Virus record (IMG/VR): IMGVR_UViG_3300037517_002612
Coordinates: 5,201-69,200 of that record
Origin: a virus
DNA: 64,000 bases
Reading direction: 5' to 3' (one strand)
Shown: piece by piece, positions 64 to 63,311 of the stretch
How positions within the stretch are numbered: the stretch's first letter is position 1
Layout: each line of letters opens with the position of its first letter
Notes under the pieces: generated by a model
What the model was told of the DNA's origin: nothing
Databases searched by the model: none
The model's input: the letters and a program-made list of their open reading frames with translations, nothing else
Translations under genes and position numbers: made by a program

Positions 64-420
64 ATGCTAACCTCTTTTGTTTATCTCTTATTAGGTTTTA
101 TCCTTTCAAACCTTGGGTACTACGCTACCAGAAACAGAGAAAGCCACAACTCACCAGTTAAACCAAGCTTTATTTTCTTTTTTAAAGATAATTACATCCG
201 GTTAATACACTCAGCTTTAATTGCGTCTATTATAAATGTAATACTAATGATGGATATAGCACAGACCAATGAAGTATTAGGCATGCCATATCTCCCAATA
301 TATGCTGTAGGAGTTGGTTTATTCCCAGACGCAATTTTAGCGTTCCTAAAGAATAAATTCGGCTTCATGCAGCCTAAGAAAGTTCAGGATGAGGATGGAT
401 CAATTTATAAAAGGAAATAA
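64..420 (+). CDS. membrane protein, putative holin
   Basis: About 3 hydrophobic segments and a basic C-terminus. ATG 64 is preferred over TTG 46, which overlaps the promoter box. Confidence 0.55.
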   Translation: MLTSFVYLLLGFILSNLGYYATRNRESHNSPVKPSFIFFFKDNYIRLIHSALIASIINVILMMDIAQTNEVLGMPYLPIYAVGVGLFPDAILAFLKNKFGFMQPKKVQDEDGSIYKRK

Positions 421-422
421 CT

Positions 423-716
423 ATGTTTTATAGCCACGACTCAAGCCAACAACCTGTACACACAGGAACCTGGACAGGATTTTTAATCACCATGGGATGT
501 AACCTTGTAGGAGGTGCCATATTAGGGATCTTACAGATCGTAGAGGATATTGATAAGCTAACCGTCTTATTCCTACACCTACTTGGAGTTATATCAGTGA
601 CTATTGGTATTGTGGTAGGTATAATTACGTTGTTCGATAAAATAGAGGCGAGGGTACAAAGGAAAAAGAAAAAGTCCGACACTCCCCATGAAAGAGCATC
701 GGACCTGAAACCATAA
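423..716 (+). CDS. membrane protein, putative holin/antiholin
   Basis: Two TM segments followed by RKKKK; adjacent to the previous membrane gene. Confidence 0.5.
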   Translation: MFYSHDSSQQPVHTGTWTGFLITMGCNLVGGAILGILQIVEDIDKLTVLFLHLLGVISVTIGIVVGIITLFDKIEARVQRKKKKSDTPHERASDLKP

Positions 717-726
717 CCATTATTAG

Positions 727-756
727 AAACGTAGTTATCTGCAGATTATTGCGTCT
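727..756. repeat. 30-bp pseudo-palindromic site, copy 1
   Basis: AAACGTAGTT-ATCTGCAGAT-TATTGCGTCT; arms identical to copies at 3239 and 51483; overlaps the resolvase stop codon. Confidence 0.85.
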
Positions 757-1393
757 GCTCAAATTCTTTTCTTAAATATTTAACTGCCCTATCACCGAAG
801 GGGCGGGTAAAGCTAGGATCAAACTTAGGCATAAGAATAAATATCTCAGCATTAGTTTTTCCTTCTTTAATAAAGTGTAGTATAAGCTCTCTCATAGGCT
901 TCACTCGGTCCAAGAACTTCTGCCTGTTGGCTTCTTGGCCTGCCTTCTGTCCGGTGAGGTTTTTTGCGTTGCCCAAAGACTCTCCTCTTGCTCTCTTAGC
1001 TGAAAGAGCTTCCTTGATCCTGGTTTGTATTCTTTTTACTTCCCACTCGGCAATGACGGCCATAATTTTAATGGTGAGTTCATTAGCTTCTGGGAAGTCG
1101 CAAGCCCTAATTGGTACTTCTGAGTCAAGGATAGAGAATAGGAATTTACAGTCACGACTCAGACGATCAATTTTAGAAACTAGAAGAGTAGCTTTAAGGT
1201 CCTTACAGGCTAATAGGGCTTGTTGTAATTTGGGACGCAGATTATTGCGTCCACTCTCCACCTCTATAAAAGAAGCAACTACTTCATCCCCTGGACGTAG
1301 GTATTGTTGGACGGCTGCTTCTTGAGCTTCCAATCCTAGTCCGGATATCTCTTGAGACTTCCGGCTAACTCTCTTATAAACTACGTACCTCAT
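746..1393 (-). CDS. small serine recombinase (resolvase/invertase family)
   Basis: YKRVS catalytic motif, EVESG, KIDRLSR, helix-E AEWE..RI..RIKEAL; short C-terminal DNA-binding region. Confidence 0.92.
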   Translation of the reverse strand: MRYVVYKRVSRKSQEISGLGLEAQEAAVQQYLRPGDEVVASFIEVESGRNNLRPKLQQALLACKDLKATLLVSKIDRLSRDCKFLFSILDSEVPIRACDFPEANELTIKIMAVIAEWEVKRIQTRIKEALSAKRARGESLGNAKNLTGQKAGQEANRQKFLDRVKPMRELILHFIKEGKTNAEIFILMPKFDPSFTRPFGDRAVKYLRKEFEQTQ

Positions 1394-2058
1394 ATATCTA
1401 TCTTATTAGGTCCCGCCCATTGCTCGGCCATGCTTTTCGCAATACCTGGGAATGTTTTACTTCTTATTGTGCTGCGTTCTTCTTTAGTTTTAGCCTGTGT
1501 TAATGCTTTGTAATACCACATTGGCTGAGACTTTATTTTACCTGTCTTCCTATCGGTCCAATAAAATCTTTCTTCCGGTTCAACGTGAGTTATTTTGTCA
1601 CCAAATAAATTTTCTCTATCATTATGGTATAGCTTAGGTAAATTCTTTAACCATAGGCAAGTTGTTTTCTGAAATCCGTCCCCAAAAAAATAAGGCTGTA
1701 TAACTTGATCGTATGGTCTATAAATCTTCCCCATTATTCCCATAGGGTTTTCTATTGCTATTTTGTGTATTGGAGCATTGGCTATTTTTAAAAAGAAATC
1801 AATACCTTCCTGTTGCCTTCCGTCTAATCTTTTTTTTTCAAAGTGCATAGAACCACTTAAAGCTAAATGAGTACATGGAGGAAACGCAATCATCATATCC
1901 CAACCCATATTTATTACTTCAAAAATATCTCTTTGGTAATGCCATTCGGGATGTCCACCACTACAAGGCAACAAATCACAACTAAAGGCTTCATGTCCTA
2001 ATTTACGCAACTCTTTTGTTACGGCTTGGCTTTCTTCACATCCTACTAATATTCTCAT
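1390..2058 (-). CDS. DNA cytosine methyltransferase-like protein (short phage type)
   Basis: ILVGCEES, SCDLLP, AFPPCT (motif IV PC), IENP (motif VI), KTTCLWL, RSKTFPGIA. Confidence 0.75.
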   Translation of the reverse strand: MRILVGCEESQAVTKELRKLGHEAFSCDLLPCSGGHPEWHYQRDIFEVINMGWDMMIAFPPCTHLALSGSMHFEKKRLDGRQQEGIDFFLKIANAPIHKIAIENPMGIMGKIYRPYDQVIQPYFFGDGFQKTTCLWLKNLPKLYHNDRENLFGDKITHVEPEERFYWTDRKTGKIKSQPMWYYKALTQAKTKEERSTIRSKTFPGIAKSMAEQWAGPNKIDI

Positions 2059-2095
2059 TCCTACGCTAATTTTAAAAGTTTAAAAAAATACAGAC

Positions 2096-2149
2096 ACATA
2101 ACAGCAGATTGGCGGCATTAAAACGACCGCCAATCTGTAACCGTTATCT
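2096..2149 (-). mobile_element. attC-like (integron cassette-type) hairpin
   Basis: On the minus strand AGATAAC ... GTTATGT core boxes flank the perfect stem CAGATTGGCGG/CCGCCAATCTG. The stop codon of the upstream ORF lies in the first box. Confidence 0.55.
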
Positions 2150-2356
2150 GCCCCAAAAATACCTTCTTTTTTCTGATTGATAGCAAACATGTTTATGGAG
2201 TTTAATAGAATAATATGGAAACGCAATTATCGTCATTATAAATAACAGCGTCAACCCATTAGCCTGTTTAACTACGGTAATATTTACCCATAGCAGGAAT
2301 ATTGCCAGTACTATGGTTAGCATTACAATCAGGATTAAAAACTTAAATTTCGTCAT
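2144..2356 (-). CDS. small membrane protein
   Basis: Two hydrophobic helices; ATG 2356. Confidence 0.5.
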   Translation of the reverse strand: MTKFKFLILIVMLTIVLAIFLLWVNITVVKQANGLTLLFIMTIIAFPYYSIKLHKHVCYQSEKRRYFWGR

Positions 2357-2424
2357 AGAAAATTGCGTTTTAAATGAATAGAGCAATAACCATCATTATT
2401 AGGAATATGATCCAAAGTATAGCT

Positions 2425-2748
2425 TCAATCGTCGTCCTCTTCATCGTTTATCTTTTTAACAGTTAGTATTAATGACTTCTTGTCTATTGGTTTAAGATTG
2501 TATTCTATAATGGCAATCTTAAAGTGGTTGCTTATATAACGCTGTATTTCAGGTGTTATTGCTACTAATAGCCTACTTTCTTCCGAGTTTATTAGTCTTG
2601 TTTTTAAGAACTTTGGCATGAGTGGGTCTTTCTGAAGTCTGTAAAGTAGACGTACTGAGTACCCGTGAAGTTTTATTGTGCGGATCTTATTATTTTGTAC
2701 TTGCTCATCGGGTTGGCTGCTTCCTCTATCTTCTTCTTCCAGGTACAT
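2425..2748 (-). CDS. hypothetical protein
   Basis: ORF in the co-oriented early block; start uncertain. Confidence 0.45.
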   Translation of the reverse strand: MYLEEEDRGSSQPDEQVQNNKIRTIKLHGYSVRLLYRLQKDPLMPKFLKTRLINSEESRLLVAITPEIQRYISNHFKIAIIEYNLKPIDKKSLILTVKKINDEEDDD

Positions 2749-2888
2749 AATGCTCTTGGTTTATTGGTTAAAATGATTTGCCCTGTTCTTTCGTGGATTA
2801 GGTCCCAAAGGTCCTTTAGTTTAGGTTTGGGGGCTTCAGGATCAATACCAGTCTTTTTTGCTATTGCTGCTCTTACGTATTGGTTCAT
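2673..2888 (-). CDS. hypothetical protein
   Basis: ORF in the early block; ATG 4 nt after a 20-bp motif site. Confidence 0.5.
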   Translation of the reverse strand: MNQYVRAAIAKKTGIDPEAPKPKLKDLWDLIHERTGQIILTNKPRALCTWKKKIEEAANPMSKYKIIRSAQ

Positions 2889-2980
2889 GGGTAGACGTAG
2901 TTATTTGCGTTGTTTAAAATACTTAAACAGGTACCCGAAAGGTGATAGTCCTGCTATATCAAGAATTATGTTGATTAATT

Positions 2981-3217
2981 TCATAGTCCGGCTGCGATTA
3001 AATGCGTCTTTTCTAATGAATAAAGCTTATCTATAGCAGCACAATACTGTAGTCCTGCTAATTCTTCGTCTTTATCGCATTCAGGTAGTGCCCATTCACA
3101 GAAGCCAAACATTTCTATTGTTACTTCTATTAGTTGGCCCATTAAAGCTCTCCAAGGGTAAAGCTCGTTAATGAAGTTGAATTTGTCTTGGATGTTTGGT
3201 GGGAGTTCGTAGTTCAT
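2981..3217 (-). CDS. hypothetical protein
   Basis: ORF with A-rich leader in the early block. Confidence 0.55.
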   Translation of the reverse strand: MNYELPPNIQDKFNFINELYPWRALMGQLIEVTIEMFGFCEWALPECDKDEELAGLQYCAAIDKLYSLEKTHLIAAGL

Positions 3218-3238
3218 GGCTACTTTTGTTTTATGGTT

Positions 3239-3268
3239 AAACGTAGTTAATTACAGAATATTGCGTCT
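3239..3268. repeat. 30-bp pseudo-palindromic site, copy 2
   Basis: AAACGTAGTT-AATTACAGAA-TATTGCGTCT; overlaps the stop codon of ORF 3251-3451. Confidence 0.85.
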
Positions 3269-3451
3269 AATATACTTATTATATGTATTTTCTTCTACTT
3301 CAATGAATCCATAGAAGGGATCTATTACTTCTCCATATGGTAGCCAATACTCTTTACCTTCAATCAGGCAGAGCTTTGAGTTCTTGCCTGTCTTTCGGTT
3401 CTTGAATTCTCTTAGGATCTTACCTGGGATTTGTATGAAGGTTCTTTCCAT
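3251..3451 (-). CDS. hypothetical protein
   Basis: ORF coupled to the upstream ORF (TAATG overlap). Confidence 0.55.
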   Translation of the reverse strand: MERTFIQIPGKILREFKNRKTGKNSKLCLIEGKEYWLPYGEVIDPFYGFIEVEENTYNKYIRRNIL

Positions 3452-3660
3452 TAAAATAATTGTAGCTGTTTATAATAAGCTTCTAAGCTATTGCTTACTC
3501 TCGATAGTGTGCAATGAGTTAGTGGATACTCCTCACCCGTGATTACTTTGAGGACTTCCTGTCTTCTTATTACGTTTGTTCCTAGGTACATTGCTACCTG
3601 GATATCGAGGCTGAACCTATCGGTACCTCTTTCTTTTAGTTTCTCTAATAGCTCTTTCAT
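3451..3660 (-). CDS. hypothetical protein
   Basis: ORF in the early block. Confidence 0.55.
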   Translation of the reverse strand: MKELLEKLKERGTDRFSLDIQVAMYLGTNVIRRQEVLKVITGEEYPLTHCTLSRVSNSLEAYYKQLQLF

Positions 3661-3786
3661 GGTGAATTGTGGTTTATATGGGTTAACGTATATTTCTGTG
3701 ATTTATTTTAAAGTGTGTGGTCCGGTTAAAAATAAAAAATTTCTGTAGAATATTGCGTTTAATATAAAATTGCTTCCCTTTCGTGA

Positions 3787-3957
3787 TTAATTCCTGATGG
3801 CCAAAATACTGAGGGCCATAAACAAGGCTAAAAGAATAGTAAAAGGGATGGTTAAAATTAAGGATTGTATAATAATACTCATGGCAATGGTGATGCCCGT
3901 TAATAGGATTAATGACAATAATATTAGGGCTGCGGATATTAGTAAGCGTGTTTTCAT
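3787..3957 (-). CDS. 56-aa hydrophobic membrane protein (not in ORF track)
   Basis: Manual translation MKTRLLISAALILLSLILLTGITIAMSIIIQSLILTIPFTILLALFMALSILAIRN. Confidence 0.55.
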   Translation of the reverse strand: MKTRLLISAALILLSLILLTGITIAMSIIIQSLILTIPFTILLALFMALSILAIRN

Positions 3958-3998
3958 AGGCTGTGTGTTTATTTTGCTGTTGTTTGCTTTGGATTTAG

Positions 3999-4262
3999 TT
4001 AGATATTAACCTTTAGGCCGAATGTATGCAACGGGATAAACCTATGACATAAATTAAGCCTTAATAATATCAACACGCTTTCTTTATTAATTTGGCTAAA
4101 ATCGTCTGAGGCATGAAATAACCTTATAAATTCGGGTTTTGCATATCCTTCAATATCTCTAAAAAATGCGGTATTGTCATTCATCATCTCCGCTGCCTGT
4201 TGTATTCCTTTGATATACTTATTCAGCCTTTTTATGTCTCTGTTTAATTCTTGTACTGTCAT
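3999..4262 (-). CDS. hypothetical protein
   Basis: ORF in the early block. Confidence 0.6.
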   Translation of the reverse strand: MTVQELNRDIKRLNKYIKGIQQAAEMMNDNTAFFRDIEGYAKPEFIRLFHASDDFSQINKESVLILLRLNLCHRFIPLHTFGLKVNI

Positions 4263-4290
4263 GGTTATATAGTTTTAATGGTTTTCACCT

Positions 4291-4322
4291 AAAAAGCCCG
4301 CAACGTTTAAAGCGTGCGGGCT
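4291..4322 (-). terminator. hairpin + U-tract (terminator or RNA processing site)
   Basis: AGCCCGCA/TGCGGGCT stem followed by TTTTT on the minus strand. Confidence 0.5.
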
Positions 4323-4340
4323 GTTGTTTGCTTTGGTGGA

Positions 4341-4628
4341 TTAAATGAACTCTTGTAAAATAAATGCAACCACATATAATTCAATAGCGTGTTCAACTAC
4401 TTCTTTTTCGTTGGCGAACTTCTTATGTAAGTGCTGTTTTTGTGCTGTTAGTCGTTTATAGATTTCTAATAAGTGATGGCAGCCGTTATGCGTTTGAACA
4501 GATGCGAAGCTAGTTTTATCAGAACCTTGCATAAAACTAATAGAAGTTATCTGATTGCCTTCTTTAACAATCTTTATATATCTATCATGATCATTGTTGA
4601 AGTAAATTTCTTGGCTTAATGTTTTCAT
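4341..4628 (-). CDS. hypothetical protein
   Basis: ORF with AAACGACC-ATG leader, shared with ardA. Confidence 0.6.
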   Translation of the reverse strand: MKTLSQEIYFNNDHDRYIKIVKEGNQITSISFMQGSDKTSFASVQTHNGCHHLLEIYKRLTAQKQHLHKKFANEKEVVEHAIELYVVAFILQEFI

Positions 4629-4649
4629 GGTCGTTTATTTATTTATGGT

Positions 4650-4778
4650 TTATAATTTACAAAAATTAACTGCGTCTTCTTCTTCTTGGGCTTCTGTTAC
4701 GTAGTGGCCCGCTTCCGTTATTATATAGACGCGATTAACTGCGTCGTATATAATAATATAGCCGTTTATTTCATTCAT
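4650..4778 (-). CDS. 42-aa hypothetical protein (not in ORF track)
   Basis: Manual translation MNEINGYIIIYDAVNRVYIITEAGHYVTEAQEEEDAVNFCKL; fills the gap. Confidence 0.45.
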   Translation of the reverse strand: MNEINGYIIIYDAVNRVYIITEAGHYVTEAQEEEDAVNFCKL

Positions 4779-4790
4779 AGCATAGTAGTA

Positions 4791-5078
4791 TTAAATTAAT
4801 CCTTCATCAGCAAATGAGTAGTATCCGCTTTCAGTTAAAATTATATGGTCTAATAGTTGAAAGTTCATTATTTTACAGGCGGCCTTTATATTGTTGGTTG
4901 CGGCCTTATCCGATTCGCTTGGAAATAATTGTCCGCTTGGGTGGTTATGGCTTAATATAATAGCTGTTGAGTGAGCTAATAGTGCACCTTCAAATAAAAT
5001 TCTTTGGTCTATTAAGTGTGTTAATGCAACTTGTAGACAATTTACTTGTAGTTCGTTTAAATTTTTTGCTTCTATCAT
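4791..5078 (-). CDS. radC: RadC-like JAB/MPN domain protein, N-terminally truncated
   Basis: SHNHPSG...SESD...LLDHII motif; the usual upstream E-F-x-V strand region is missing; start 5078 or 5126. Confidence 0.75.
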   Translation of the reverse strand: MIEAKNLNELQVNCLQVALTHLIDQRILFEGALLAHSTAIILSHNHPSGQLFPSESDKAATNNIKAACKIMNFQLLDHIILTESGYYSFADEGLI

Positions 5079-5088
5079 GGTGGTCCGT

Positions 5089-5355
5089 CTAAATTTGGTT
5101 TGTGATTCTTTTGTATATAAAGTCATGGAATTGGGTTAAAATAAAATTTTCTGCGGTTTCCCATTCATCAGGGACGTTTTGTCCCCATTCTATTTCGTCA
5201 CTCCTTCTGCTTAATGTTGGGGCTTGTATTATATAGCCGTCGTAGTCCATTATTTGGGCTCCTTTATCGTCGTACATTGTAAAGCTGAAATCGTATCGGC
5301 CATGTTGTCTGTCTGTGTTGTCTTCGAATACTATGTCTTTAATAATTTCTGTCAT
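5089..5355 (-). CDS. acidic hypothetical protein
   Basis: ORF in the early block. Confidence 0.6.
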   Translation of the reverse strand: MTEIIKDIVFEDNTDRQHGRYDFSFTMYDDKGAQIMDYDGYIIQAPTLSRRSDEIEWGQNVPDEWETAENFILTQFHDFIYKRITNQI

Positions 5356-5388
5356 GATTATATAATTTAGTGGTTATTAATTTAGTTA

Positions 5389-5640
5389 TTATTGAACTTT
5401 TGTTACAAACCATTTTACTTCATGCCCTGAGTTATATAGGATGTTGTCTATCTTGGTTATCAGGTTATCCATGGCCATATCATTTGTAAGGCACATTGTT
5501 AGGTCTTTATCGTCTTCCTCTATTCCTGCGCCAAATTCGTTGGCTTTTTTTATATATTGGTGAAGGGCATCCGCTTCGAATTGAAACGTATATACGTCTA
5601 TTATGCCTTTGTTTGTGGTTATTATTGCATTTACTTCCAT
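5389..5640 (-). CDS. acidic hypothetical protein
   Basis: ORF in the early block. Confidence 0.6.
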   Translation of the reverse strand: MEVNAIITTNKGIIDVYTFQFEADALHQYIKKANEFGAGIEEDDKDLTMCLTNDMAMDNLITKIDNILYNSGHEVKWFVTKVQ

Positions 5641-5740
5641 AGGTTATTAATTTAAGTTTGTGATTAATTGCGTCTCACCACCTTAATCCCCTACCTACAT
5701 TCAAGTAGATTAGAGGCTAAGGGGGTTGTTTGGAGTTTAT

Positions 5741-6301
5741 TTAATCATTCCAATTATCGTTTATTAGGTAGTAAATGCCATCATATTGAAATTCGGTATA
5801 ATTTTCCCGTTTAAAGCGGTCGTAATCAATGCTGATATAGTCGCTTTTGCTCTCTGCTTCTACTACATCAGGGTAAAACATCTCGAATTCTTCATAAATA
5901 GCGTCGCGTGTGTCCTCTATTAAATAAACGTCTTCGAATTTATCCATGGCATAACTAAAACTTTCACCTTGGTCCATGATAAAACAAACCTTAATTTTGT
6001 CATCATCATCTAGGTTAATAAACTCGTATAACTCTTCGAAGTCCATTCCTGACTCACTATAAAAAGAACGTGGGAACCCTTCGAAGTCTGTTATCATTAT
6101 TTCCTCTCTTTTACTGCCAAACCCTAAAGGGCTTTTTTGGTCCGCTTCTTCAAAGTGGTTCTGAATATACTCGTCTAACTCGTCCGCGTCATTGAAGTCG
6201 GTTAAATCAACCCAATGGCCAAACTCGAATTGCGTGCCGTTATTATAACTTGCGTAATCTGTTAGAAAGATTTTTGGGGTTTCTGCTGTTGTGGTTTTCA
6301 T
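5741..6301 (-). CDS. ardA: ArdA-like antirestriction protein (DNA mimic)
   Basis: IFLTDYASYNNG...GHWVDL, EEIMITDFEGFP, C-terminal YIDYDRF-type motif; very acidic. Confidence 0.85.
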   Translation of the reverse strand: MKTTTAETPKIFLTDYASYNNGTQFEFGHWVDLTDFNDADELDEYIQNHFEEADQKSPLGFGSKREEIMITDFEGFPRSFYSESGMDFEELYEFINLDDDDKIKVCFIMDQGESFSYAMDKFEDVYLIEDTRDAIYEEFEMFYPDVVEAESKSDYISIDYDRFKRENYTEFQYDGIYYLINDNWND

Positions 6302-6321
6302 GGTCGTTAATTTTAAAAGGT

Positions 6322-6417
6322 TTAATTAAATAATTTACTTTTGATTTCTGCTTGTTCGTAGTTAACTGCGTATACTATTATACTGCATCCGTTAACAATA
6401 AAATTATATAGCTTCAT
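6322..6417 (-). CDS. 31-aa hypothetical protein (not in ORF track)
   Basis: MKLYNFIVNGCSIIVYAVNYEQAEIKSKLFN; ATGA overlap with the upstream ORF. Confidence 0.4.
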   Translation of the reverse strand: MKLYNFIVNGCSIIVYAVNYEQAEIKSKLFN

Positions 6418-6518
6418 AGTACATAGGTTAAGAGGTTAATAATATACACTATACCTGCTAACCATAGTAACCATCCATAAATAAGGAGGTCAATAATAAG
6501 ATTTTTTAATTGTTTCAT
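6414..6518 (-). CDS. 34-aa single-TM protein, first gene of the leftward operon (not in ORF track)
   Basis: MKQLKNLIIDLLIYGWLLWLAGIVYIINLLTYVL; AACGACCA-ATG leader. Confidence 0.5.
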   Translation of the reverse strand: MKQLKNLIIDLLIYGWLLWLAGIVYIINLLTYVL

Positions 6519-6556
6519 TGGTCGTTAATTTAAGTGATTTATACTAATATTTACGG

Positions 6557-6564
6557 CAAAGATA
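6557..6564 (-). promoter_or_regulatory. Bacteroidota -7 box driving the leftward early block
   Basis: TATCTTTG on the minus strand about 40 nt upstream of ATG 6518. Confidence 0.65.
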
Positions 6565-6675
6565 AAAAAAGGTTTCAAACCAATTTAATATAATTGACAT
6601 AATTACCTTAATTAACTCTTTTTTAACACAAAATTTTTAATATTTTGAGCTAAAATAGGCTTATAAAATACTGAT

Positions 6676-7074
6676 AATCAATGCTTTGTAATTATACAAA
6701 TATACTGGATTAATAATCAATAAGTTATGGATGAGTATTTTGGCTGCTTTTTAGGATGATTAGATAAATGGAATTAAATCCGTATAATATAAACCAATAG
6801 GAGAACAAAACAGCAAACAGCCATCCCGAATAAAGGACCAAGGTAAAAGGATAAGCCAAGATAATTGCGTCTCATATAATAACCTCACCCATAACATAAG
6901 AGAACAACCAAAAAAGTTAAACCTGCAAGAGGTATTAAAGTAAACATGATAAACCCCAATTGAGATAAAAGAAATCAATCCCAATTTAAAAGAAACAAAA
7001 AGAAAAAAAAGAATAAAGTATTTCGTGATGAAGAACCAAGACAACAACCTATTTATTTATTAATCAATACTTTG
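6676..7074 (+). promoter_or_regulatory. three IHF-consensus boxes (WATCAANNNNTTR)
   Basis: AATCAATGCTTTG 6676, AATCAATAAGTTA 6715 and AATCAATACTTTG 7062 in the largest non-coding region. Confidence 0.45.
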
Positions 7075-7420
7075 TACTTTGTTTGGACCTATTCTCCTGC
7101 ATGCAATAGCCTTACACCTTTGCGACTAATGTTATTGTGATGTAATCAGATTGCTTTTATTGATTTGCTTTTGCATTTGTCCACAAATTTGACCGCTTTA
7201 AGCCTTTGCGCCTTTATTTATGCGACTTTCATGGGGTGGGGGTGGGTTTCGGAATTTTTTTTCGTACGATTGCATGCCCTACCATATTTATATATATACT
7301 CTCCAGAAACACTCAAGATAATCTTTTAAAAACGTGTCATAAAAACGTCCATATATGCTTGATTATCAGCGAACGGTATTTGAGATATATATAAAATCTT
7401 GTATATTAATAAATTAAGCA

Positions 7421-7428
7421 TATATTTG
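7421..7428 (+). promoter_or_regulatory. Bacteroidota -7 box (rightward)
   Basis: TATATTTG with TTG about 19 nt upstream; ATG at 7433, so the mRNA would be near-leaderless. Confidence 0.6.
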
Positions 7429-7432
7429 CCCT

Positions 7433-7777
7433 ATGAATAAGTTTACAAAGAAGAATGGGTTTGGATATGTGTGGTTACTGTACTATAGATACCGAGTAGT
7501 TTATGTTGGCAGTTGTGTAAGTTTTAATGGAGACTTGTTCGATAGTTTAAATGGGAAGAAGTTTGACGGGATGAAATATAAGGAGGTGGTCCTGGGTGAT
7601 ATGTTAAAGTTAAAGCGGGAGTTGGTGAGGAAGTATGATCCGGTATATAATAGGAAGAATGTAAAGCGGGTCTCGTTGGTTAAGGAATTGACTTTACAGG
7701 AGAAGTTGGATTATTGTAGGGTGAATGGAATAAGTTTGGCTGAGTATAGATTAACCCATAACCCCCAACAAATATGA
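7433..7777 (+). CDS. GIY-YIG-like domain protein
   Basis: GYVWLL...VVYVGS and YDPVYN motifs; catalytic R/E not evident. Confidence 0.45.
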   Translation: MNKFTKKNGFGYVWLLYYRYRVVYVGSCVSFNGDLFDSLNGKKFDGMKYKEVVLGDMLKLKRELVRKYDPVYNRKNVKRVSLVKELTLQEKLDYCRVNGISLAEYRLTHNPQQI

Positions 7778-7819
7778 AAGAGCTAATAGAATTAGGTAGA
7801 ATAGTAGCCGTAGTTTTCT

Positions 7820-8083
7820 ATGAAAAGAATTAGTGATAAACGCAGAAAGCAAAACAAAGAGTACCTTAAAATTAGGGCCGAGATACTTGCGTCCAACCCA
7901 ATCTGCCCAGTAACAAACCAACCAGCTACCGAAATCCACCACATGAAAGGGAGAACCGGAACACTCCTCACAGACAGAAAATATATGCTGCCTGTTTCCA
8001 GGGAAGGACACGTATGGATCGAGATGAACCCCGAAGAGGCAAAGGCTAAGGGGTGGTCATTATCAAGACTTTCCAAAGATTAA
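7820..8083 (+). CDS. small HNH-like endonuclease
   Basis: CPV...ATEIHH.KGR...VSREGHVWI. Confidence 0.7.
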   Translation: MKRISDKRRKQNKEYLKIRAEILASNPICPVTNQPATEIHHMKGRTGTLLTDRKYMLPVSREGHVWIEMNPEEAKAKGWSLSRLSKD

Positions 8084-8199
8084 TTGCTTATATGCAATCA
8101 ATTCACAATATTTGTAATATCTATTCGTTCTTTATATAAATTCTAACTAGGTCAACAAGCTCGTAGAGATATGGGCTTGTTCCCTTAAAACTTTAACTT

Positions 8200-8778
8200 A
8201 TGAATTTTATTGATCTTATTGAATCTAGACGCATTAAACTAGGAATTAACATCGAGGAACTCTGCCGGAGAGCTGGTATGACTCACGCTTCTAACTACAT
8301 TAAATACAGGGATATGGGTGTGATGCCTGGCTTCCAAAACGTAGTTGATCTTATGAATGCTGTAGGGTATAACCTCGTTGCCATGGACGATAAGTTGAGG
8401 AACCCAGATAAAATTATTGAGTGGTGCACAATAAGTCTTTATATTCACCGTTATAAAGATCATCTCTGCTACGTGTTTGAGAAGATAACTGGGTTCAGAA
8501 CACCGGTTAGTAGACATAACTCGGCATTGATAAAGACTGTTCTTTTTTATGTTTGGTATCACAAGACAACGCAGAATATCGCGTCCAACATAACTCTCCA
8601 CGACGTAGTGTACGAACCAGGAGTAGATATGGAGGACATGATCCACGACTTATCCGCAATAGGATTAATTACGTTGGAGGGAAACCCGTCTAACATAGCC
8701 TATCAATTCTTCATGGAAGTAAGCGAAGGTCTTAAACAATATCTTGAATCGGCTGAATTAGCGGTTCATTTAACTTAA
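8200..8778 (+). CDS. XRE-family HTH protein with C-terminal extension
   Basis: RRIKLGINIEELCRRAGM...P.FQNVVDLMNAVG. Confidence 0.65.
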   Translation: MNFIDLIESRRIKLGINIEELCRRAGMTHASNYIKYRDMGVMPGFQNVVDLMNAVGYNLVAMDDKLRNPDKIIEWCTISLYIHRYKDHLCYVFEKITGFRTPVSRHNSALIKTVLFYVWYHKTTQNIASNITLHDVVYEPGVDMEDMIHDLSAIGLITLEGNPSNIAYQFFMEVSEGLKQYLESAELAVHLT

Positions 8779-8840
8779 TCTGGCCGAGCCCCGATTGCCT
8801 TCTTGGTCGTTGGCTACGGGCTCGATCGCCAGATCTTTTT
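8779..8840 (+). terminator. long GC-rich hairpin + U-tract
   Basis: Nested stems TCTGGC/GCCAGA and CGAGCCC/GGGCTCG, then TCTTTTT. Confidence 0.5.
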
Positions 8841-8997
8841 AAACATAATTTGTTTTTTAAATTAATAAGCCATATCATTGTGGTACAATACAAACGATCA
8901 AGTGAAAAATCAGATAAATACTTATTTAAAATAAAGCCATAGGGGGTGTGCTTCTTACTTGATCGTTTGTGCATGCCTCCGACTGGCCTACTTTATT

Positions 8998-9198
8998 ATG
9001 AAAGTTATATTCGAAGAATACGAGTTTAATGACGGCACTGAATTGGCAATGTTTATTAATGCTAAAGAAAAACTGTACTTAGGGATTAGCACAGAGCATG
9101 ATGCAGATTGTGAACGAAGATGTATAGTCCTAGAAAAGTGGCAGGTAAAAGAGTTATTAAGGGAGATGCGTAAAATGTATAATCAAATGGAAGAATGA
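8998..9198 (+). CDS. hypothetical protein
   Basis: ATG 8998 after a structured leader; ATGA overlap with the initiator gene. Confidence 0.6.
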
Positions 9199-9863
9199 CA
9201 GGATACGAACTATCAAGATCATGGTTTGACTGGGCATACGAAAACCCAGACTTAAACACTCCTACTCATACGGCACTATACATGTGGCTTATTGAGAAGT
9301 GGAACCGTTGCGGGCAAAAAGAAAAAATCTCCATAACTACATCCGAAAATATGGAGGCTATTGGAGTAAAATCTCGAAACACCCACTCTAAAATATTGGC
9401 AGATTTAATAGAATATGGATTTATAATTATGGTAGTTCCATCTCGAAATCAGTTCTCCTGTAATGTTATATCGCTTACTCAAAAAATAAGCAAGCAAAAG
9501 GACAGCAAGAGGACAGCTCTTGATCAAGCACTTATACAGCACGAGGACAGCACGAGGACAGCAAGTGTGCAAGCACCTATACTATTAATAAACAAAGAAA
9601 CAAGTAAACAAAGAAACAAAGAAACAATAGATATGCCTGCGATTTTTTATAGACAGTTCGTTCATCTAAAAATAACCCATGATGAAATACAGGAATTAAT
9701 AAAAGCAGGTTATTCTCAAGAACAAATTGACGACACCTTGGACGATATCGAAAACTATAAAAAAAACACAGCTTACAAATCTCTTTACCTTACCGCTAGA
9801 AAATGGTTAAAAAGGGATAAGGATAAAACACAGCCACAAGGAACGCTTAAAATGGTTTACTAA
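9195..9863 (+). CDS. phage replication initiator / replisome organiser
   Basis: N-terminal wHTH-like region ([11 protein letters not shown]...ALYMWL), low-complexity linker, C-terminal [12 protein letters not shown]; directly upstream of the primase-helicase. Confidence 0.7.
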
Positions 9864-11626
9864 TGATTGTAATTAACCTAGAAGATAAACAGGAGTATGA
9901 TATCGAAGTCCAAAGAGACGGAGAGAACCATATGACTTGTCCGGTTTGTTCCCACACAAGGAAGAAGCAGAAAGAGAAGTGCTTCTCGTTTAATTACAAC
10001 AAGAAGGTAGGAAGATGCAATCACTGTAACGTGGTGCTCGTTGAAAAGAAAGAATTTAAACCGGAGCCTAAATTTAAAAAGCCAGAGTGGAACCCAAAAC
10101 TTGAAATATTATCAGGGGCCGCAGTAAACTGGTTCAGGGATCGCAAAATATCCGCAAGCACATTAATCCACTTCCGAATTACTGAGGGTAAGACTTATAT
10201 GCCACAGGTCCAAAAGGAGAGAAATACCATTCAGTTTAATTACTTCAAAAACGGGGAGCTCATCAACGTCAAATACAGGGACGGCCAGAAAAACTTTAAA
10301 ATGGTATCCGAGGCAGAACTTTGCCTTTATAACATCGACGCAGTTATTAACTCCAAACAGGTTATTATTTGCGAAGGAGAAATGGATGCTCTTTCTTTTC
10401 ACGAAGCAGGATACAGAAACGTAGTATCAGTACCTAATGGGGCTACTATTGGACGCAATAATCTGTCATACCTCGATAATTGTATTGACCTTTTTGAAAA
10501 CGATACGGAGTTTATCCTAGCTACAGATAATGACGTCGCTGGAAATAACCTAAGAGACGAACTCGTAAGAAGACTCGGTGCCGAGAACTGTTATAAGGTT
10601 TCATTCAGGGATTGCAAAGATGCAAACGAATGCCTAGTTAAATACGGACCATCGGCCATCAAGGAAACAATCGACAATAAGAAGCCGTTTCCAGTATCAG
10701 GAATATTCACCGCCCTTGATATATCAGAAGAGATCGACGACTACTTCCATAACGGACTTCCTGTAGGTTGTGAGATAGGCATAGCTGATTTTGACAAACT
10801 ACTAAAGTTCCACCCAGGTTATATAACAGTCATCACTGGAATACCTGGTCATGGAAAATCTGAGTTTACGGACTTTATGATGTCGCTACTAAACATTAAG
10901 CACGATTGGCAGTTTGGAGTCTACTCTCCAGAGAATTACCCACTACAACTTCACTTCAGTAAGTTTGCCGAGAAGCTAATAGGGAAGTCCTTCAGCCGCA
11001 TGAACGAGTTGGAGTTAAGATTAGCCAAGAACTACTTTAACGAAAACTTCTTTTTTATTAAACCAGAGGAGGACAGCAAACTAGACAACATCCTTGAGAA
11101 GGCTAAATACCTTGTTAAAAAGAAAGGAATACGAGGACTTGTTATCGACGCTTGGAACAAGATTGAACATAATTGGGTGGGATCAGAAACGCAGTACATC
11201 AGCAAGGAACTTGATAAACTTGCCATGTTTTGCGAAAGATACGGAGTGCATTTATTCCTAGTGGCTCACCCAACAAAGATACAGAAAGATAAGAACACAG
11301 GATTATACGAGGTGCCAAATCTTTATAACATTAACGGATCTGCCAACTTCTTTAATAAAACCCATAACGGTATCAGTGTTTACCGGAATTTTACTACGAA
11401 ACGTACAGAAATCTACGTCCAAAAAGTAAAATTCAAACACTGGGGAGAACCTGGACAAGTAGAACTTGAATGGGATTGGACCAACGGCAGGTATTACCGC
11501 TACACACCAGACTCCTCTAATTGGATAACCAACCAAACGCAGCAATCAGAATTACATATACCACAAAAATTAACACCTTTAAACCAATTAATAGTCCCAA
11601 CAGGGGACGAAGATATCCCGTTCTAA
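9863..11626 (+). CDS. bifunctional primase-helicase (T7 gp4/Twinkle type)
   Basis: Zn finger CPVC..CNHC, TOPRIM CEGEMDAL and ATDNDVAG, KDANE, Walker A GIPGHGKS, VIDAWN, VAHP, C-terminal DEDIPF. Confidence 0.93.
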   Translation: MIVINLEDKQEYDIEVQRDGENHMTCPVCSHTRKKQKEKCFSFNYNKKVGRCNHCNVVLVEKKEFKPEPKFKKPEWNPKLEILSGAAVNWFRDRKISASTLIHFRITEGKTYMPQVQKERNTIQFNYFKNGELINVKYRDGQKNFKMVSEAELCLYNIDAVINSKQVIICEGEMDALSFHEAGYRNVVSVPNGATIGRNNLSYLDNCIDLFENDTEFILATDNDVAGNNLRDELVRRLGAENCYKVSFRDCKDANECLVKYGPSAIKETIDNKKPFPVSGIFTALDISEEIDDYFHNGLPVGCEIGIADFDKLLKFHPGYITVITGIPGHGKSEFTDFMMSLLNIKHDWQFGVYSPENYPLQLHFSKFAEKLIGKSFSRMNELELRLAKNYFNENFFFIKPEEDSKLDNILEKAKYLVKKKGIRGLVIDAWNKIEHNWVGSETQYISKELDKLAMFCERYGVHLFLVAHPTKIQKDKNTGLYEVPNLYNINGSANFFNKTHNGISVYRNFTTKRTEIYVQKVKFKHWGEPGQVELEWDWTNGRYYRYTPDSSNWITNQTQQSELHIPQKLTPLNQLIVPTGDEDIPF

Positions 11627-11629
11627 ATT

Positions 11630-12605: not shown

Positions 12606-12610
12606 AGTGT

Positions 12611-12618: not shown

Positions 12619-12624
12619 TAAAAT

Positions 12625-51484: not shown

Positions 51485-51512
51485 ACGCAATATTCTACAG
51501 TTAACTACGTTT
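51483..51512. repeat. 30-bp pseudo-palindromic site, copy 3
   Basis: AGACGCAATA-TTCTACAGTT-AACTACGTTT; reverse-complement arms of copies 1 and 2; overlaps a TAG stop. Confidence 0.85.
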
Positions 51513-51998: not shown

Positions 51999-52014
51999 AC
52001 ACAGTTAACTACGT

Positions 52015-53676
52015 ATGTTTAAAAAATACCGCATAATATCCGAAGGGCAACTACCAAACTCCCAACATGGCATCTTTAACCCTGGAGCAGTACAATGCCC
52101 TCTAATTAAAAGCGATCGCAACATCCTTTTAAGACAGGATACCACTCGCGGATATAGTAATGACTGTAACACCGTACTCGTAGTAGACAAAATAGAAAAG
52201 CTAAAACACGGGGAAGTAGACAACTACTACTACCTCACAAAAGAAGGCTTCCCAGAAGGCAAAATAGAGGATTTCAGACTCTTCCACTTCCGAGGAGAAT
52301 TATATGCTATCCACACATTAGTAGTTACAAAAGACCTATTAATGAATGCCGAGGTAATCAAGCCTGTTATATCCAAGGTTACACGTTCAACCATCACAAT
52401 GGTAGACTACGTAGAACTACCAGGTATCACAAAGAAACAATGGGAGAAGAACTGGATGCCAATAGTCTGGAAGGACAATCTATACATAATCTACGGAATA
52501 GATCCCTTAATCATTTATAAGCTACAGGGTTGGTCATGGATGCAAGTAATGGAAGTAGACACCGGACTCATAGCACAAGTCAAACAATGGCACCCAAAAG
52601 CTTCATTCTTATCATTATCAGCGACGCATTTATTTGAAGGAAACCAAGTACTCGGCTTCTGGCACATAAGAGAAAACGATATTTATTATCAGGGAATGTT
52701 TGCCTTAGACATGGAAACCCTGAAAATAACCCACTTTACCCCTCCTGTTATCGACGGCACCGATGCAGAGGGGTATAAAGCAGGGTGCCTATACGTTAAC
52801 GACTTAGTGGTAACAGAGAACAACGTAGAAGTTTGGTGCGGAGAAGGAGACTCCCATACAACAATGTTGGAAGCCCCAAAAAACTACGTCGCCCAAAAGC
52901 TATCCGAACACCCATATAACTACACAGCCCCATTAAAGATTAAACTACTTGACAACGGAGTAGGAGACTTCATTTGCGCCATGTATGCAATAAACGGATG
53001 GCTCAGAGATAACCCTACCAGAAAGATAAAACTATACCTATTAGCTAACCGACAAATAGCCACCATCCTAAACATCCCAAGAGTGGAGATATGGAATTGG
53101 TCCGGACAAAGGGTAGACCTCGATCTATCCTCCAACCAAGACAATATCCCATTCAGAGATAGAAAAATCTACCATGAAAAGGTGAAAGGATCATTCAAGG
53201 AGTGGTATAGTAAAGCACTCGGCACAACACCGGAGGATATAAAAGTAGACCACATAGAGCCATTAAAAGGCTATGAAGATGCTATAGTATTATTCCCATT
53301 CGCAGCGCATCCAGAAAGATGCTGGCCTAAAGAGAGATGGATAGAATTGGCGACGCAGTTAATTGCGTCTAATCACAGAGTCATAATATCAGATCCCTTC
53401 CCCGAAAGATGTAAGGACTTCCCAGGAGAACACTTATTAGGAACCTCCATGAGAGAAGTATTAGGATTAATTAAAACAGCTAAATTAACAGTTTCAAACG
53501 AGTCAGGAGCAGCCCATATGGGAGGACTCTTTGAAAGCAAGACTTTAGTATTAAGTGGTTGGCTTGATCCGGCCAAGATTAATGATCGAACAAACAACGA
53601 CTACATATTCAAACCTTCACTTAAACTAATTGAAGTTGAAGAAGTTTACAATAAAATTATTGGTTTAATAAAATAA
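52015..53676 (+). CDS. GH130-like beta-propeller + GT9-like glycosyltransferase fusion
   Basis: FNPG, EDFRL, WEKNWMP in the N-terminal part; GVGDFI, FPFAA..ERCWP.ERW, VSNESG.AH in the C-terminal part. Confidence 0.75.
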   Translation: MFKKYRIISEGQLPNSQHGIFNPGAVQCPLIKSDRNILLRQDTTRGYSNDCNTVLVVDKIEKLKHGEVDNYYYLTKEGFPEGKIEDFRLFHFRGELYAIHTLVVTKDLLMNAEVIKPVISKVTRSTITMVDYVELPGITKKQWEKNWMPIVWKDNLYIIYGIDPLIIYKLQGWSWMQVMEVDTGLIAQVKQWHPKASFLSLSATHLFEGNQVLGFWHIRENDIYYQGMFALDMETLKITHFTPPVIDGTDAEGYKAGCLYVNDLVVTENNVEVWCGEGDSHTTMLEAPKNYVAQKLSEHPYNYTAPLKIKLLDNGVGDFICAMYAINGWLRDNPTRKIKLYLLANRQIATILNIPRVEIWNWSGQRVDLDLSSNQDNIPFRDRKIYHEKVKGSFKEWYSKALGTTPEDIKVDHIEPLKGYEDAIVLFPFAAHPERCWPKERWIELATQLIASNHRVIISDPFPERCKDFPGEHLLGTSMREVLGLIKTAKLTVSNESGAAHMGGLFESKTLVLSGWLDPAKINDRTNNDYIFKPSLKLIEVEEVYNKIIGLIK

Positions 53677-54057: not shown

Positions 54058-54149
54058 TTTTTTTATATCAAAAATATTGTTATTTTTACCACGCAATCAA
54101 CTACGTTCACCCCTAAAAAATACTCAAAATAACCACAAATAATACTACT

Positions 54150-61012: not shown

Positions 61013-61042
61013 ATTTTTCTATATTTGAACAAAATATAGACC

Positions 61043-61699
61043 ATGGCATTTATACAAAAAGCTAAAGCCTCTTTAGGCGACGTAATAATGAAAGGAGTCC
61101 TTACTCCAACAACTTCAACAGCCTTTGATACAACTCAAAATGAACTTTGGACCGGTGCTGTAACAGCAGTGGCCTCACAAATAACCTCCATTGGTGTTAC
61201 GTGCTTTACCACTAATCAAGCATTAGACTTCCCAAGACAACCAGGAGCCCCCGTTATATTTAATCAGGATTGGGTATCAACTCAAATTGATACATGTACT
61301 GCTCTAGTTGCTCAGATTAACGCAGCAGCCTTAGATGTAGATAGTCCTCTTTATGGATTAGTTTCAGCAGCATCTACCGGAGGTGGGGGTTATACAATTA
61401 CTACTACGGATCCTTCATTGGTTCTGCAGTTCGATAACTTGGTAAGAACTACCATCACAAAAACTTTATCGGGATTTGACCTATCTACCTTCCAAGGTAA
61501 TTGTATTGTGGTGGCAACCACCACTACTGCCATTAACTATAATGAACTAGGAGTAGCAGCAACAGCCGGAGTAGGAATACTCGTTGGTGCAGGAGCTCCT
61601 TTTGATATCATTGGAAACGCAAATATCTTGAACTTCCGTTGTATTGAAGCTTCAGGAGCTTCCCCTGCAACCGTTAATTACGAAATCTACGTTGGATAA
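61043..61699 (+). CDS. virion structural protein
   Basis: T/A/G-rich; promoter box at 61020-27. Confidence 0.55.
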   Translation: MAFIQKAKASLGDVIMKGVLTPTTSTAFDTTQNELWTGAVTAVASQITSIGVTCFTTNQALDFPRQPGAPVIFNQDWVSTQIDTCTALVAQINAAALDVDSPLYGLVSAASTGGGGYTITTTDPSLVLQFDNLVRTTITKTLSGFDLSTFQGNCIVVATTTTAINYNELGVAATAGVGILVGAGAPFDIIGNANILNFRCIEASGASPATVNYEIYVG

Positions 61700-62468
61700 T
61701 ATAAAAAATACACGAATAATAAGGGCAGATAAACCCCTTAAAAGCAGAGATACGTTCAAGTCTGTTAATGGATGCCCTACTATTACAATAGGCGATAATC
61801 AAGAAAGTGGGATTGTATTTATTGGTGACGGTGCCGCATTTACTGCTTTAATTAGTGGAGGTGAACCAGGTTATACAATAGGAACTGTAACAGGGGAAGT
61901 TCCACCAGGCTGCATTGCAGATGTTACTGAAATAGACGGAGATTATTATGTAATTCTTGATGGAAAGGCTACTACATTTGGTTCTTATACATTTTCATTA
62001 ACAGTATTAGATGATAATAACTGTGAAAGTGATCCTAAAACATTTACCATTGAAGTATGGGCAGAGTTTAATAATAAAATTCCACAGGTTGTAACTATAT
62101 TAGATCCTTTTTTAATAGCTGTATCTGAACTCCCATTAACTTATGGCTCAGGTGTAGCTTTAGATTCTATAATTTTGAATTATACAAGTGTTGGCGCATC
62201 ATTTCCTAATATAGAAGATCCAAACGGTGATTTTACAGCTGATTTATATAATTCTCCTGCAACAGGTGATGTTACTGATGCTGTAATTTATGATATAACT
62301 GAGGCATACCCACAGTTTGCAACAGGGTCAACTCCATACACGGATAATTTTATTTCTGGATCAGATTCATTTACTGAATTTGATGGATCAGCGGCTAATG
62401 GAGATTGGAAATTTCGTGGAGTGACCGGGACTATTAATGTAGTATCGCTTGTATTTAAACCAGTATAA
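61692..62468 (+). CDS. Ig-like + proprotein-convertase-P-like decoration protein
   Basis: SGGEPGYT...G.VPPG...G.ATT.GSYTF.LTV.D; FDG.AANGDW; no ATG in frame, so start uncertain. Confidence 0.55.
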   Translation: MDNIKNTRIIRADKPLKSRDTFKSVNGCPTITIGDNQESGIVFIGDGAAFTALISGGEPGYTIGTVTGEVPPGCIADVTEIDGDYYVILDGKATTFGSYTFSLTVLDDNNCESDPKTFTIEVWAEFNNKIPQVVTILDPFLIAVSELPLTYGSGVALDSIILNYTSVGASFPNIEDPNGDFTADLYNSPATGDVTDAVIYDITEAYPQFATGSTPYTDNFISGSDSFTEFDGSAANGDWKFRGVTGTINVVSLVFKPV

Positions 62469-62469
62469 T

Positions 62470-63024
62470 ATGCAAAAACGTAAACTAATAATACTTATTT
62501 CTATAGCACTATTACTGATAGCAATGATATTAACCTCATGCTGTACCACTAGACAGCGTGAGGTTATAGTTTACAAAACAAAGGATAGTACAGCAATTCA
62601 CGTAGATACTACATGGAGGGTATTCACTAATCCGGCAGATAGCATATCTATATTTGGTAAGCTTACAGCCTACCATGATAGCCTTGGCAAGTGCAAAATA
62701 AAAGACACAGAAGGAACCACAGAGTCAGGAAAGATAAAGGTAAAGTATATCATTAAGAACGACAGCATCTTTATCGAATGCAACACCAAGCCTTATGAGA
62801 TTAAAATAGCAGAGTTAACCACAACCATAGAGAAGTTCAAAGAGATTTACGAGTCATACACCAGTGAAACAACGAAGGTTAAAAACACCTCATGGTTCTC
62901 GTTCTGGCAGACTTGGGCAGTACTAGCCTATATCGCACTTACTACAACGTACCTCATTTTAAAGGCATTTAAGTTGAAAATTGCGTTCACCATAACACCA
63001 CCCTTTATCACCATAACAAAATGA
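62470..63024 (+). CDS. putative unimolecular spanin
   Basis: Lipoprotein signal (LTSC), beta-rich periplasmic region and C-terminal TM helix. Confidence 0.6.
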   Translation: MQKRKLIILISIALLLIAMILTSCCTTRQREVIVYKTKDSTAIHVDTTWRVFTNPADSISIFGKLTAYHDSLGKCKIKDTEGTTESGKIKVKYIIKNDSIFIECNTKPYEIKIAELTTTIEKFKEIYESYTSETTKVKNTSWFSFWQTWAVLAYIALTTTYLILKAFKLKIAFTITPPFITITK

Positions 63025-63311
63025 TCTATACCTACAACATAGATTCTGCCAAAGGCGACGAAACTATTGTTGCAGGGAGAACAGGTAAGATAATTACGTT
63101 GACCTCAATCAATATCAACAAACCTACAGGAGCTTATTTTGTTTCTCTTATTTTAGTACGTGGATCAGTAGAAAGCACTTTGTGGATTTATAATTTAGAT
63201 GAGGGAGACATAATATTAGATACCACTGATTATAAAATAGATCAATCTTCATCAATTAATATATCAAGTACCCCAGGAATTTCATTAACCGTAATTGGAG
63301 TAATAGAATGA
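63021..63311 (+). CDS. small beta-rich hypothetical protein
   Basis: ATGA-coupled ORF. Confidence 0.6.

Follow-up and report, generated by a model that had tools for sequence, protein, structure and literature searches.

The genome of an uncultured phage, IMG/VR virus record IMGVR_UViG_3300037517_002612, carries a short DNA word, AYTRCGT (ACGYART on the opposite strand), in about three times the number of copies expected from base composition. We analysed a stretch of 64,000 nucleotides (the window), which corresponds to bases 5201-69200 of the 69,200-base record; all coordinates below are in window numbering. The enrichment is genuine and robust, the signal resides in the DNA and not in the peptide, the word is one arm of a longer palindrome, and it is specific to the lineage of this phage. 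The best fit to these observations, which we offer tentatively, is that the dispersed half-sites are docking sites for a phage-encoded DNA-binding protein, with an effect that depends on their density.

Over-representation of AYTRCGT

The 100 copies in the window span positions 220-63099, with 57 on the + strand and 43 on the - strand. The initial annotation had estimated roughly 100 matches against about 35 from base composition, and this tally was accurate: Markov models of order 0, 1, 2, 3, 4 and 5 predict 34.5, 23.1, 28.7, 42.1, 54.8 and 76.5 copies, respectively. At order 0, ATTGCGT (38 vs 8.2), ACTACGT (31 vs 8.2) and ACTGCGT (19 vs 5.1) are enriched, whereas ATTACGT, the fourth member of the degenerate motif, is not (12 vs 13.0), so that the motif as first proposed holds for three of its four words. 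The longer forms, which had been thought more enriched still, indeed are: AATTGCGTY (18 vs 1.3), AACTACGT (22 vs 2.5) and AACTGCGTY/RACGCAGTT (12 vs 0.8), all at order 0. TAAYTRCGTY is found 33 times for 1.7 expected. An unbiased ranking of the window's 7- and 8-mers placed AYTRCGT-type words among the most strongly over-represented, and they came out on top when all 6- and 7-mers were scored against synonymous shuffles.

Codon-aware nulls were computed on the whole genome with 200 shuffles each; the DNA that is not shuffled retains its sites, which inflates these nulls. None of the 200 shuffles reached the observed 100 copies when synonymous codons were shuffled within genes (49.0 ± 4.6), when the dinucleotides at codon junctions were kept in addition (68.4 ± 5.5), or when the order of codons was shuffled (39.7 ± 5.1). 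The 34 genes of at least 200 amino acids (aa) hold 65 copies, against 28.9 and 41.0 under two codon-aware nulls. A dicodon-preserving Euler shuffle of 50 pooled genes gave 52.9 ± 5.6 copies for 79 observed (0/200), and the corresponding values were 14 vs 3.1 for AATTGCGTY and 26 vs 5.2 for TAAYTRCGT. The excess thus outlasted the Markov and codon-shuffle nulls that the initial annotation had called for, including the shuffle preserving dicodon and amino-acid content that it had named as the decisive one. A peptide or codon-pair artefact is ruled out, as the excess survives the synonymous, junction-preserving, codon-order and dicodon shuffles; the occurrence in both orientations and the absence from 56 related loci encoding homologous proteins also counter it.

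The codons chosen around the word tell the same story. GCG makes up 95 of the 1311 alanine codons, and 34 of the 95 lie in the context T-GCG-T. Where an alanine falls between ATT and T, the codon is GCG in 12 cases, GCC in one, and GCA or GCT in none, in line with the earlier suggestion that synonymous codons are bent to make the motif. The seven ATT-GCG-T occurrences named in support of that suggestion are all in frame 0 of + strand genes:

12375-12381, + strand: ATT-GCG-T in frame 0; likewise at 15428, 22610, 33726, 49165, 55396 and 62980

The rare codons GCG and ACG serve to build the word. The encoded peptides permit one of the three enriched words at 413 places, 69 of which carry it (23.0 expected). 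By context, 42 copies are sense, 42 antisense and 16 intergenic, which places 84 in open reading frames (ORFs), and all six classes of orientation and frame exceed the plain synonymous null (observed/expected: 16/1.9, 17/11.8, 6/1.9, 9/1.3, 25/15.5 and 5/1.8). That about 100 half-site copies are paid for with rare codons points to a process which acts on the DNA itself and depends on density.

The copies are spread evenly within genes (16/15/17/13/17 by fifths). Their density is about one per 0.7 kb, or one per 1.1-1.5 kb on each strand, and the coefficient of variation (CV) of the spacing, 0.86 on the + strand and 1.04 on the - strand, is inside the null range in both cases. The flanks are unrelated, apart from the composite sites described below: flanking sequence agrees at 19 or more of 30 bases in only 4 pairs of sites, so that the copies are independent occurrences, and an origin as copies of a longer repeat is ruled out. 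The sparseness of matches noted earlier in two AT-rich segments, 36750-37200 and 61750-62450, is meaningless, since only 0.7 and 1.1 sites are expected there at the density of the window.

The word is one arm of a palindrome

AYTRCGT is one arm of the palindrome ACGYAR-TTAA-YTRCGT. Ten sites match this 16-bp palindrome at 14 or more positions, against 0.4 expected from order-3 Markov simulations, among them:

26300-26315: palindrome, 16/16 (ACGYARTTAAYTRCGT), inside a 1176-aa gene
53353-53368: palindrome, 16/16, near the 3' end of the gene 52015-53676
4729-4744: palindrome, 15/16, in the early region, flanked on either side by TATAAT-like boxes at a distance of 3-4 bp
2895-2910: palindrome, 15/16, in the early region
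6356-6371: palindrome, 15/16, at the edge of a long AT-rich non-coding stretch (6300-7200)
51999-52014: palindrome, 15/16, immediately 5' of the ATG of the gene 52015-53676
54091-54106: palindrome, 15/16

The arm also occurs in composite sites of 26 bp:

729-754: two outer half-sites flanking a central CTGCAG, overlapping the stop of the invertase-like gene
3241-3266: composite built as at 729-754
51485-51510: composite, inverted relative to the other two

Across the 100 copies, the partner half matches at 6-7 of 7 positions in 11 (0.5 expected), at 5 of 7 in 3, and at 4 or fewer in 86. The initial description of the copies as solo half-sites therefore applies to the 86 without a recognisable partner and not to the 11 that have one. 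Of the copies, 78 fall in genes of 100 aa or more, and these keep the centre of the palindrome, with 82-86% A/T at the three upstream positions against a background of 61%; in addition, 28 of them have G at -4 and 62 have Y directly after the word. The extended consensus is about 10-14 bp long. At 13 bits, a matrix trained on the sites matched 82 places where simulations gave 5.2; the comparison is generous, as the matrix was trained on the same genome.

Related phages carry words of their own

Through terminase alignment we collected 80 related loci from IMG/VR and tested the 56 of at least 9 kb. Measured against base composition, AYTRCGT reached twofold in none of the 56 (range 0-1.5), compared with 2.7-fold in the phage itself (G000). 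Several relatives have different dispersed words, and three whole records (G404, G405 and G406) were analysed. In the article full texts searched, we came across no account of a dispersed word of this kind for these phages, which is not to say that none has been published.

G404 is the closest relative, with a terminase identity of 55% and 32 reciprocal best hits averaging 52%. It contains CGTCGCC 43 times for 1.3 expected, 34 of these copies being dispersed and the remainder lying in a coding tandem repeat. The extended word has two parts, ATTAAT-NN-CGTCGCC(CC), and is 15-17 bp long; aligned on CGT, it has T-A-A-T/Y at the same distance as the word of G000. In the coding DNA of G404, CGTCGCC (26 vs 3.6) and AYTRCGT (43 vs 21.1) both exceed the synonymous shuffle. 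Judged from its sequence, this asymmetric two-part word would suit a two-part DNA-binding domain.

The word of G405 is AGCTAA-NN-TTGGCGTT. TGGCGTT is present 63 times for 5.8 expected (48 vs 7.1 in coding DNA), and AYTRCGT shows no excess (23 vs 22.8). In G406, CTGTGGC reaches 75 copies for 5.1 expected with a strand bias of 15 sense to 54 antisense, and AYTRCGT is depleted (5 vs 21.4). With strands pooled, CTGTGGC is more evenly spaced than chance (CV 0.77, P 0.007), and this signal differs in kind from that of G000. Since the relatives carry different words of their own, some factor probably reads the phage DNA itself.

A protein that may read the word

We suggest, as a tentative best fit, that a sequence-specific phage protein reads the half-sites. 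Each half-site, approximately W-A-A-Y-T-R-C-G-T-Y and often preceded by a weak A-G, corresponds to the strong arm and AT-rich centre of the 16-bp palindromes and 26-bp composite sites of the phage itself. Single copies would dock one subunit of the protein, and pairs of subunits would occupy the palindromes of the early and regulatory regions. The dispersed copies might keep the protein on the phage DNA, mark that DNA, or soak up the protein as genomes multiply. For the 86 copies without a partner, random placement and turnover between relatives suggest a role that depends on density and not on position.

One candidate reader can be named:

746-1393, - strand: small serine recombinase of the resolvase/invertase family, 215 aa (Pfam Resolvase, E 4.4e-21; PHROG 125, DNA invertase)

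The recombinase gene adjoins the composite site at 729-754, which is built of two inverted arms. G404 has a homologue that is 58% identical, and G405-G408 have none; among 24 further records and genomes, two gave distant matches only (43-44% identity, catalytic domain alone). The AYTRCGT excess was present in both records with a close homologue (G000 and G404) and in neither of the two fully analysed records that lack one (G405 and G406). The recombinase is the sole candidate that we can name, and an early protein of no recognised family is equally possible.

Several observations weigh against the docking of a phage protein, or against this candidate. The association between recombinase and word comprises four genomes and is a lead only. 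Moreover, G405 and G406 have stronger words without a close recombinase homologue, which argues for a general phenomenon independent of that gene; the habit shared by the clade must rest on something else. Among 10 small early ORFs, no DNA-binding Pfam family was found at E up to 0.1. Stray sites of known regulators are usually avoided and not, as here, in excess. The spacing (CV 0.86-1.04) is neither more even nor more clustered than chance. When the junction-preserving null is applied to the 6 classes of orientation and frame, clear enrichment is left only in frame 0, sense (16 vs 5.4) and antisense (9 vs 2.8); one further class is marginal and the remaining three show none. A wider core is enriched too (YTGCGTY 101 vs 23.7, along with AATGCGT, TCTGCGT and GCTGCGT), so that part of the signal is looser than the site as defined. 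Finally, 59 sites of G000 align without gaps to G404, where the protein permits the word at 12 and the word is present at 4. Although 5 of 29 mapped G404 sites coincide with G000 sites (random-position null 0.10), the 4 of 12 permitted places that are left after peptide identity is accounted for are too few to claim conserved sites, and positional conservation was rejected.

A more speculative extension, which we consider doubtful, is that uncultured phages of 60-75 kb, as a whole clade, "sign" their DNA: every lineage would write its own word of 7-17 bp about once per kb, on both strands and in coding DNA as well, to be read by a fast-evolving phage factor that tells self from host or competitor DNA. 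If so, the signature might protect the DNA from a phage nuclease or allow selective replication or packaging; in this phage it would consist of the AYTRCGT half-sites, whose reader would also be put to use at the early-promoter palindromes.

Alternative explanations

Behind the docking of a phage protein we rank, in descending order, a drive linked to DNA modification, a host-defined signal, a context bias, decoy promoters and priming sites.

The initial annotation had offered two readings, a DNA signal bound by protein and a mutational bias linked to modification. The palindrome arm, the freedom of orientation and the longer version in G404 favour the former, and the latter is less likely; neither is proven. 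The modification reading draws on HIP1 of cyanobacteria, a short word kept in coding DNA at a cost in codon choice, for which a methyltransferase is suspected. In the phage, a methyltransferase would mark CpG, and biased repair of T:G mismatches would regenerate the word from near-cognates. The initial annotation had assigned a C5-methyltransferase-like gene to the phage; the Pfam C5-methylase family PF00145 has no match in the phage genome (positive controls were found), but a small gene does match a methyltransferase family:

1390-2058, - strand: small methyltransferase-like gene, 222 aa (PHROG 757 "DNA methyltransferase", E 3.5e-60)

The neighbours of its product in a language-model atlas are automatically named putative DNA cytosine methyltransferase; a sequence search of the PDB with the protein returned nothing. 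The presence of such a gene, the random scatter and the rapid turnover of the word fit the modification drive. So does the finding that, among the 413 peptide-permitted places, neighbours one CpG-to-TpG/CpA change away are the most depleted class (18 vs 32.0), compared with 30 vs 35.4 for transversion neighbours. Genome-wide, however, the six TpG/CpA variants of the three words are not depleted overall (48 vs about 53.5 at order 2), and transversion alternatives, too, are almost absent from ATT-Ala-T (GCT 0, GCC 1). The Vsr family (PF03852) has no match in the phage, with positive controls again found. None of five related records (G404-G408) has a homologue of the methyltransferase-like gene, yet the three of them that were analysed whole have stronger dispersed words. 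With homologues at about 50% identity in 159 records of phages that infect many different hosts, a long target specific to one lineage is less likely, and the drive leaves the fixed-spacing palindromes and the 15-17-bp word of G404 unexplained. The phage word resembles HIP1 in being written into coding DNA against codon choice and in the suspected methyltransferase. It differs in that the enriched 7-mers lack palindromic symmetry (a partner half accompanies just 11 of the 100 copies), in being phage-borne at a density unmatched in 401 sampled Bacteroidota genomes, and in the lack of the methyltransferase-like gene from G404-G408. We regard this explanation as rather unlikely.

A host-defined signal copied by the phage, such as a Chi-like or uptake-type word or the site of an abundant host regulator that is soaked up, seems unlikely for other reasons. 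Uptake- and Chi-type words have a similar density, random scatter, presence in coding DNA and lineage-specific dialects, and the phage word, at about one per 0.7 kb, resembles them in all four. The 5.2-kb module of tail-fibre and glycan genes that precedes the window has 0 copies, where the density of the remaining genome predicts 8.1; such a gap would be expected of newly acquired DNA. We compared the phage with 401 Bacteroidota genomes drawn evenly from the phylum. TAAYTRCGTY occurs at 477 per Mb in the phage (33 copies) and at about 30 per Mb at most in these genomes, none of which comes near the phage density, and in most of them it is rarer than a reversed control pattern. This low density weakens the idea of a host signal, with the reservation that the host is not identified. 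The 16-bp palindrome is also absent from the three metagenome-assembled genomes (MAGs) searched and, unlike Chi, the word has no strand polarity (57 + and 43 -; 42 sense and 42 antisense).

It is improbable, too, that context-dependent codon or dinucleotide bias combined with restriction-site avoidance merely funnels CpGs into contexts such as TGCGT. CpG is low (0.75) and many CG-containing words are nearly absent; TGCGT is in excess overall (188 vs 94.8) and avoids a preceding G; and the junction-preserving (68.4) and dicodon (52.9) nulls absorb much of the excess. Nevertheless, the excess persists under these two nulls (z 4.6-5.7) and grows with the length of the word (TAAYTRCGT, 26 vs 5.2). 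ACTACGT is in excess although TACGT in general is not (149 vs 149.3), the word forms palindromes, and the excess is missing from the 56 related loci with homologous proteins.

Equally improbable are promoters or decoys for a phage RNA polymerase, in which the word would be an upstream recognition element with a TATA-type box four bases downstream. TATA lies exactly 4 bp downstream of 8 of the 100 copies against 0.75 expected, six of them on the + strand:

6864-6880, + strand: word, 4 bp and TATAAT, promoter-like subclass; other + strand starts at 220, 3260, 3752, 4738 and 22610

The TATA-bearing copies at 220, 3260, 3752 and 6864 lie upstream of + strand ORFs, the spacing recalls promoters of single-subunit polymerases, and a 4184-aa protein of the phage could hold a virion polymerase. 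On the other hand, 92 of the 100 copies have no such box and antisense copies are equally frequent. No polymerase family was detected, although the PF00940 search was uninformative as its controls were blank too. A scan for sigma-70-type promoters gave 36 sites against 36.4 in shuffles, and hence no excess.

Least likely of all is that the word marks where the phage primase begins lagging-strand synthesis: one site per 1.1-1.5 kb on each of both strands is in the range of Okazaki fragments, but the spacing is no more even than chance (CV 0.86 and 1.04), the fixed-spacing palindromes are left unexplained, and the primase, a 587-aa protein, belongs to the Toprim/DnaB type, in which the known enzymes recognise trinucleotides.

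Comparison with known systems

Small serine recombinases act at res/hix-type sites, whose arms typically have a GC-containing outer part and an AT-rich inner part. The likeness here is that a resolvase/invertase gene adjoins a 26-bp composite of two inverted arms with just such outer and inner parts. The difference is the genome-wide excess of single arms, which to our knowledge is not a property of small serine recombinase systems; binding of the arm by the recombinase is a candidate only.

Stray binding sites are normally selected against. Several relatives with different words, the closest of them with a longer version, make a tractable comparative system for following the joint change of a DNA word and its reader, and for learning what purpose genome-wide words serve in lytic phages, with self-marking, titration timers and silencing as candidate roles. 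The analysis supplies a concrete motif and a candidate protein for a binding test.

The closest parallels are found in mycobacteriophages. Cluster A phages have stoperators, reported to be many short asymmetric repressor sites spread genome-wide, coding DNA included, with the same motif at the early promoter (PMC6550527). According to that report, stoperator motifs differ between related phages and track genome distance, and they keep one predominant orientation relative to transcription (PMC6550527). The Cluster A repressor is reported to be a monomer whose two domains read the asymmetric site (PMC9283540), and such a protein would suit the two-part word of G404. The sites in this phage are likewise many, dispersed and asymmetric, 86 of 100 having no partner and 84 lying in ORFs. 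They differ from stoperators in having no predominant orientation (42 sense and 42 antisense) and in a shorter and looser word. No repressor was found, the 10 early ORFs being without a DNA-binding Pfam family, and no integrase was noted among the scanned proteins, which gave only the small serine recombinase and received no dedicated integrase search.

Cluster O phages are reported to have more than 30 copies of a 17-bp dyad repeat between and inside genes, with function unknown (PMC4351075). Those repeats, as described there, are complete and almost invariant palindromes, in contrast to the 10-11 palindromic sites and 86 single arms found here. The present word is set apart from stoperators and Cluster O repeats by its freedom of orientation, its mostly single arms, its looser sequence and its larger number of copies.

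The phage, its samples and further observations

The virus record is rated complete by CheckV. Contigs of 20 public runs hold DNA of the phage, 19 of them labelled lake water and one wastewater. The genome encodes a Toprim/DnaB-type primase-helicase, a large terminase, a GroEL-like chaperonin and an Erf-type annealing protein, together with glycosyltransferases and Methyltransf_24 proteins. The terminase has 22.7% identity to its best GenBank phage matches (Flavobacterium, Cellulophaga and Maribacter phages), and public assemblies contain terminase proteins 58-67% identical to it. Distant relatives are held by MAGs of several phyla, 4 of 7 being Bacteroidota. Single-protein scans of viral and metagenome contigs for close relatives found nothing.

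The early, mostly leftward region (746-6301) encodes ArdA, a RadC-like JAB protein, the small methyltransferase-like protein and the small serine recombinase, and this gene set resembles an anti-defence set:

5741-6301, - strand: ArdA gene

Several CG words are nearly absent (GGCGT 1 vs 60.2, ATCGAT 2 vs 45.6, CTCGAG 0 vs 18.4, AGCGCT 0 vs 18.4, and GCGC at 0.25 times expectation), a scarcity which, taken with the ArdA gene, suggests strong avoidance of restriction sites. The 4184-aa ORF at 32718-45272 has no Pfam match above cut-off and one match to a PHROG of unknown function (residues 2281-2447); its product is possibly an ejected giant protein.

The contig from the wastewater run (X20) is a variant of the phage. 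About three quarters of sampled words are common to both in the test stretch 20000-29999, and over 1-20000 the two differ little where they align. The variant has an insertion of 676 letters at 2137/2139 and lacks 3976-4275 and 4348-4649, which points to turnover of gene cassettes in the early region between 2137 and 4649. None of the 40 listed differences from the contigs of public runs (141 in all) falls within a word, a comparison that is powerless with 0.56 expected.

Bases 1-5200 of the genome, before the window, encode collagen-like, glycine-rich and glycosyltransferase genes at 42.7% G+C. They contain no AYTRCGT, against 2.8 copies from composition and the 8.1 given above, and are probably a recently exchanged host-range module.

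Other words are confined to one strand. In the whole window, GGTTACAC occurs 10 times on the + strand and never on the - strand; it is part of a longer word, CCAGTGTAACC, on the opposite strand, with 7-8 copies. GGGCCGCA is found 7 times on the + strand and not on the - strand, and both GGTTACAC and GGGCCGCA may be promoters or terminator stems of rightward operons. All 13 copies of CCACCACC lie on the - strand, and the relative G405 has 17 copies, again confined to a single strand; the two phages thus have a strand-specific word in common.

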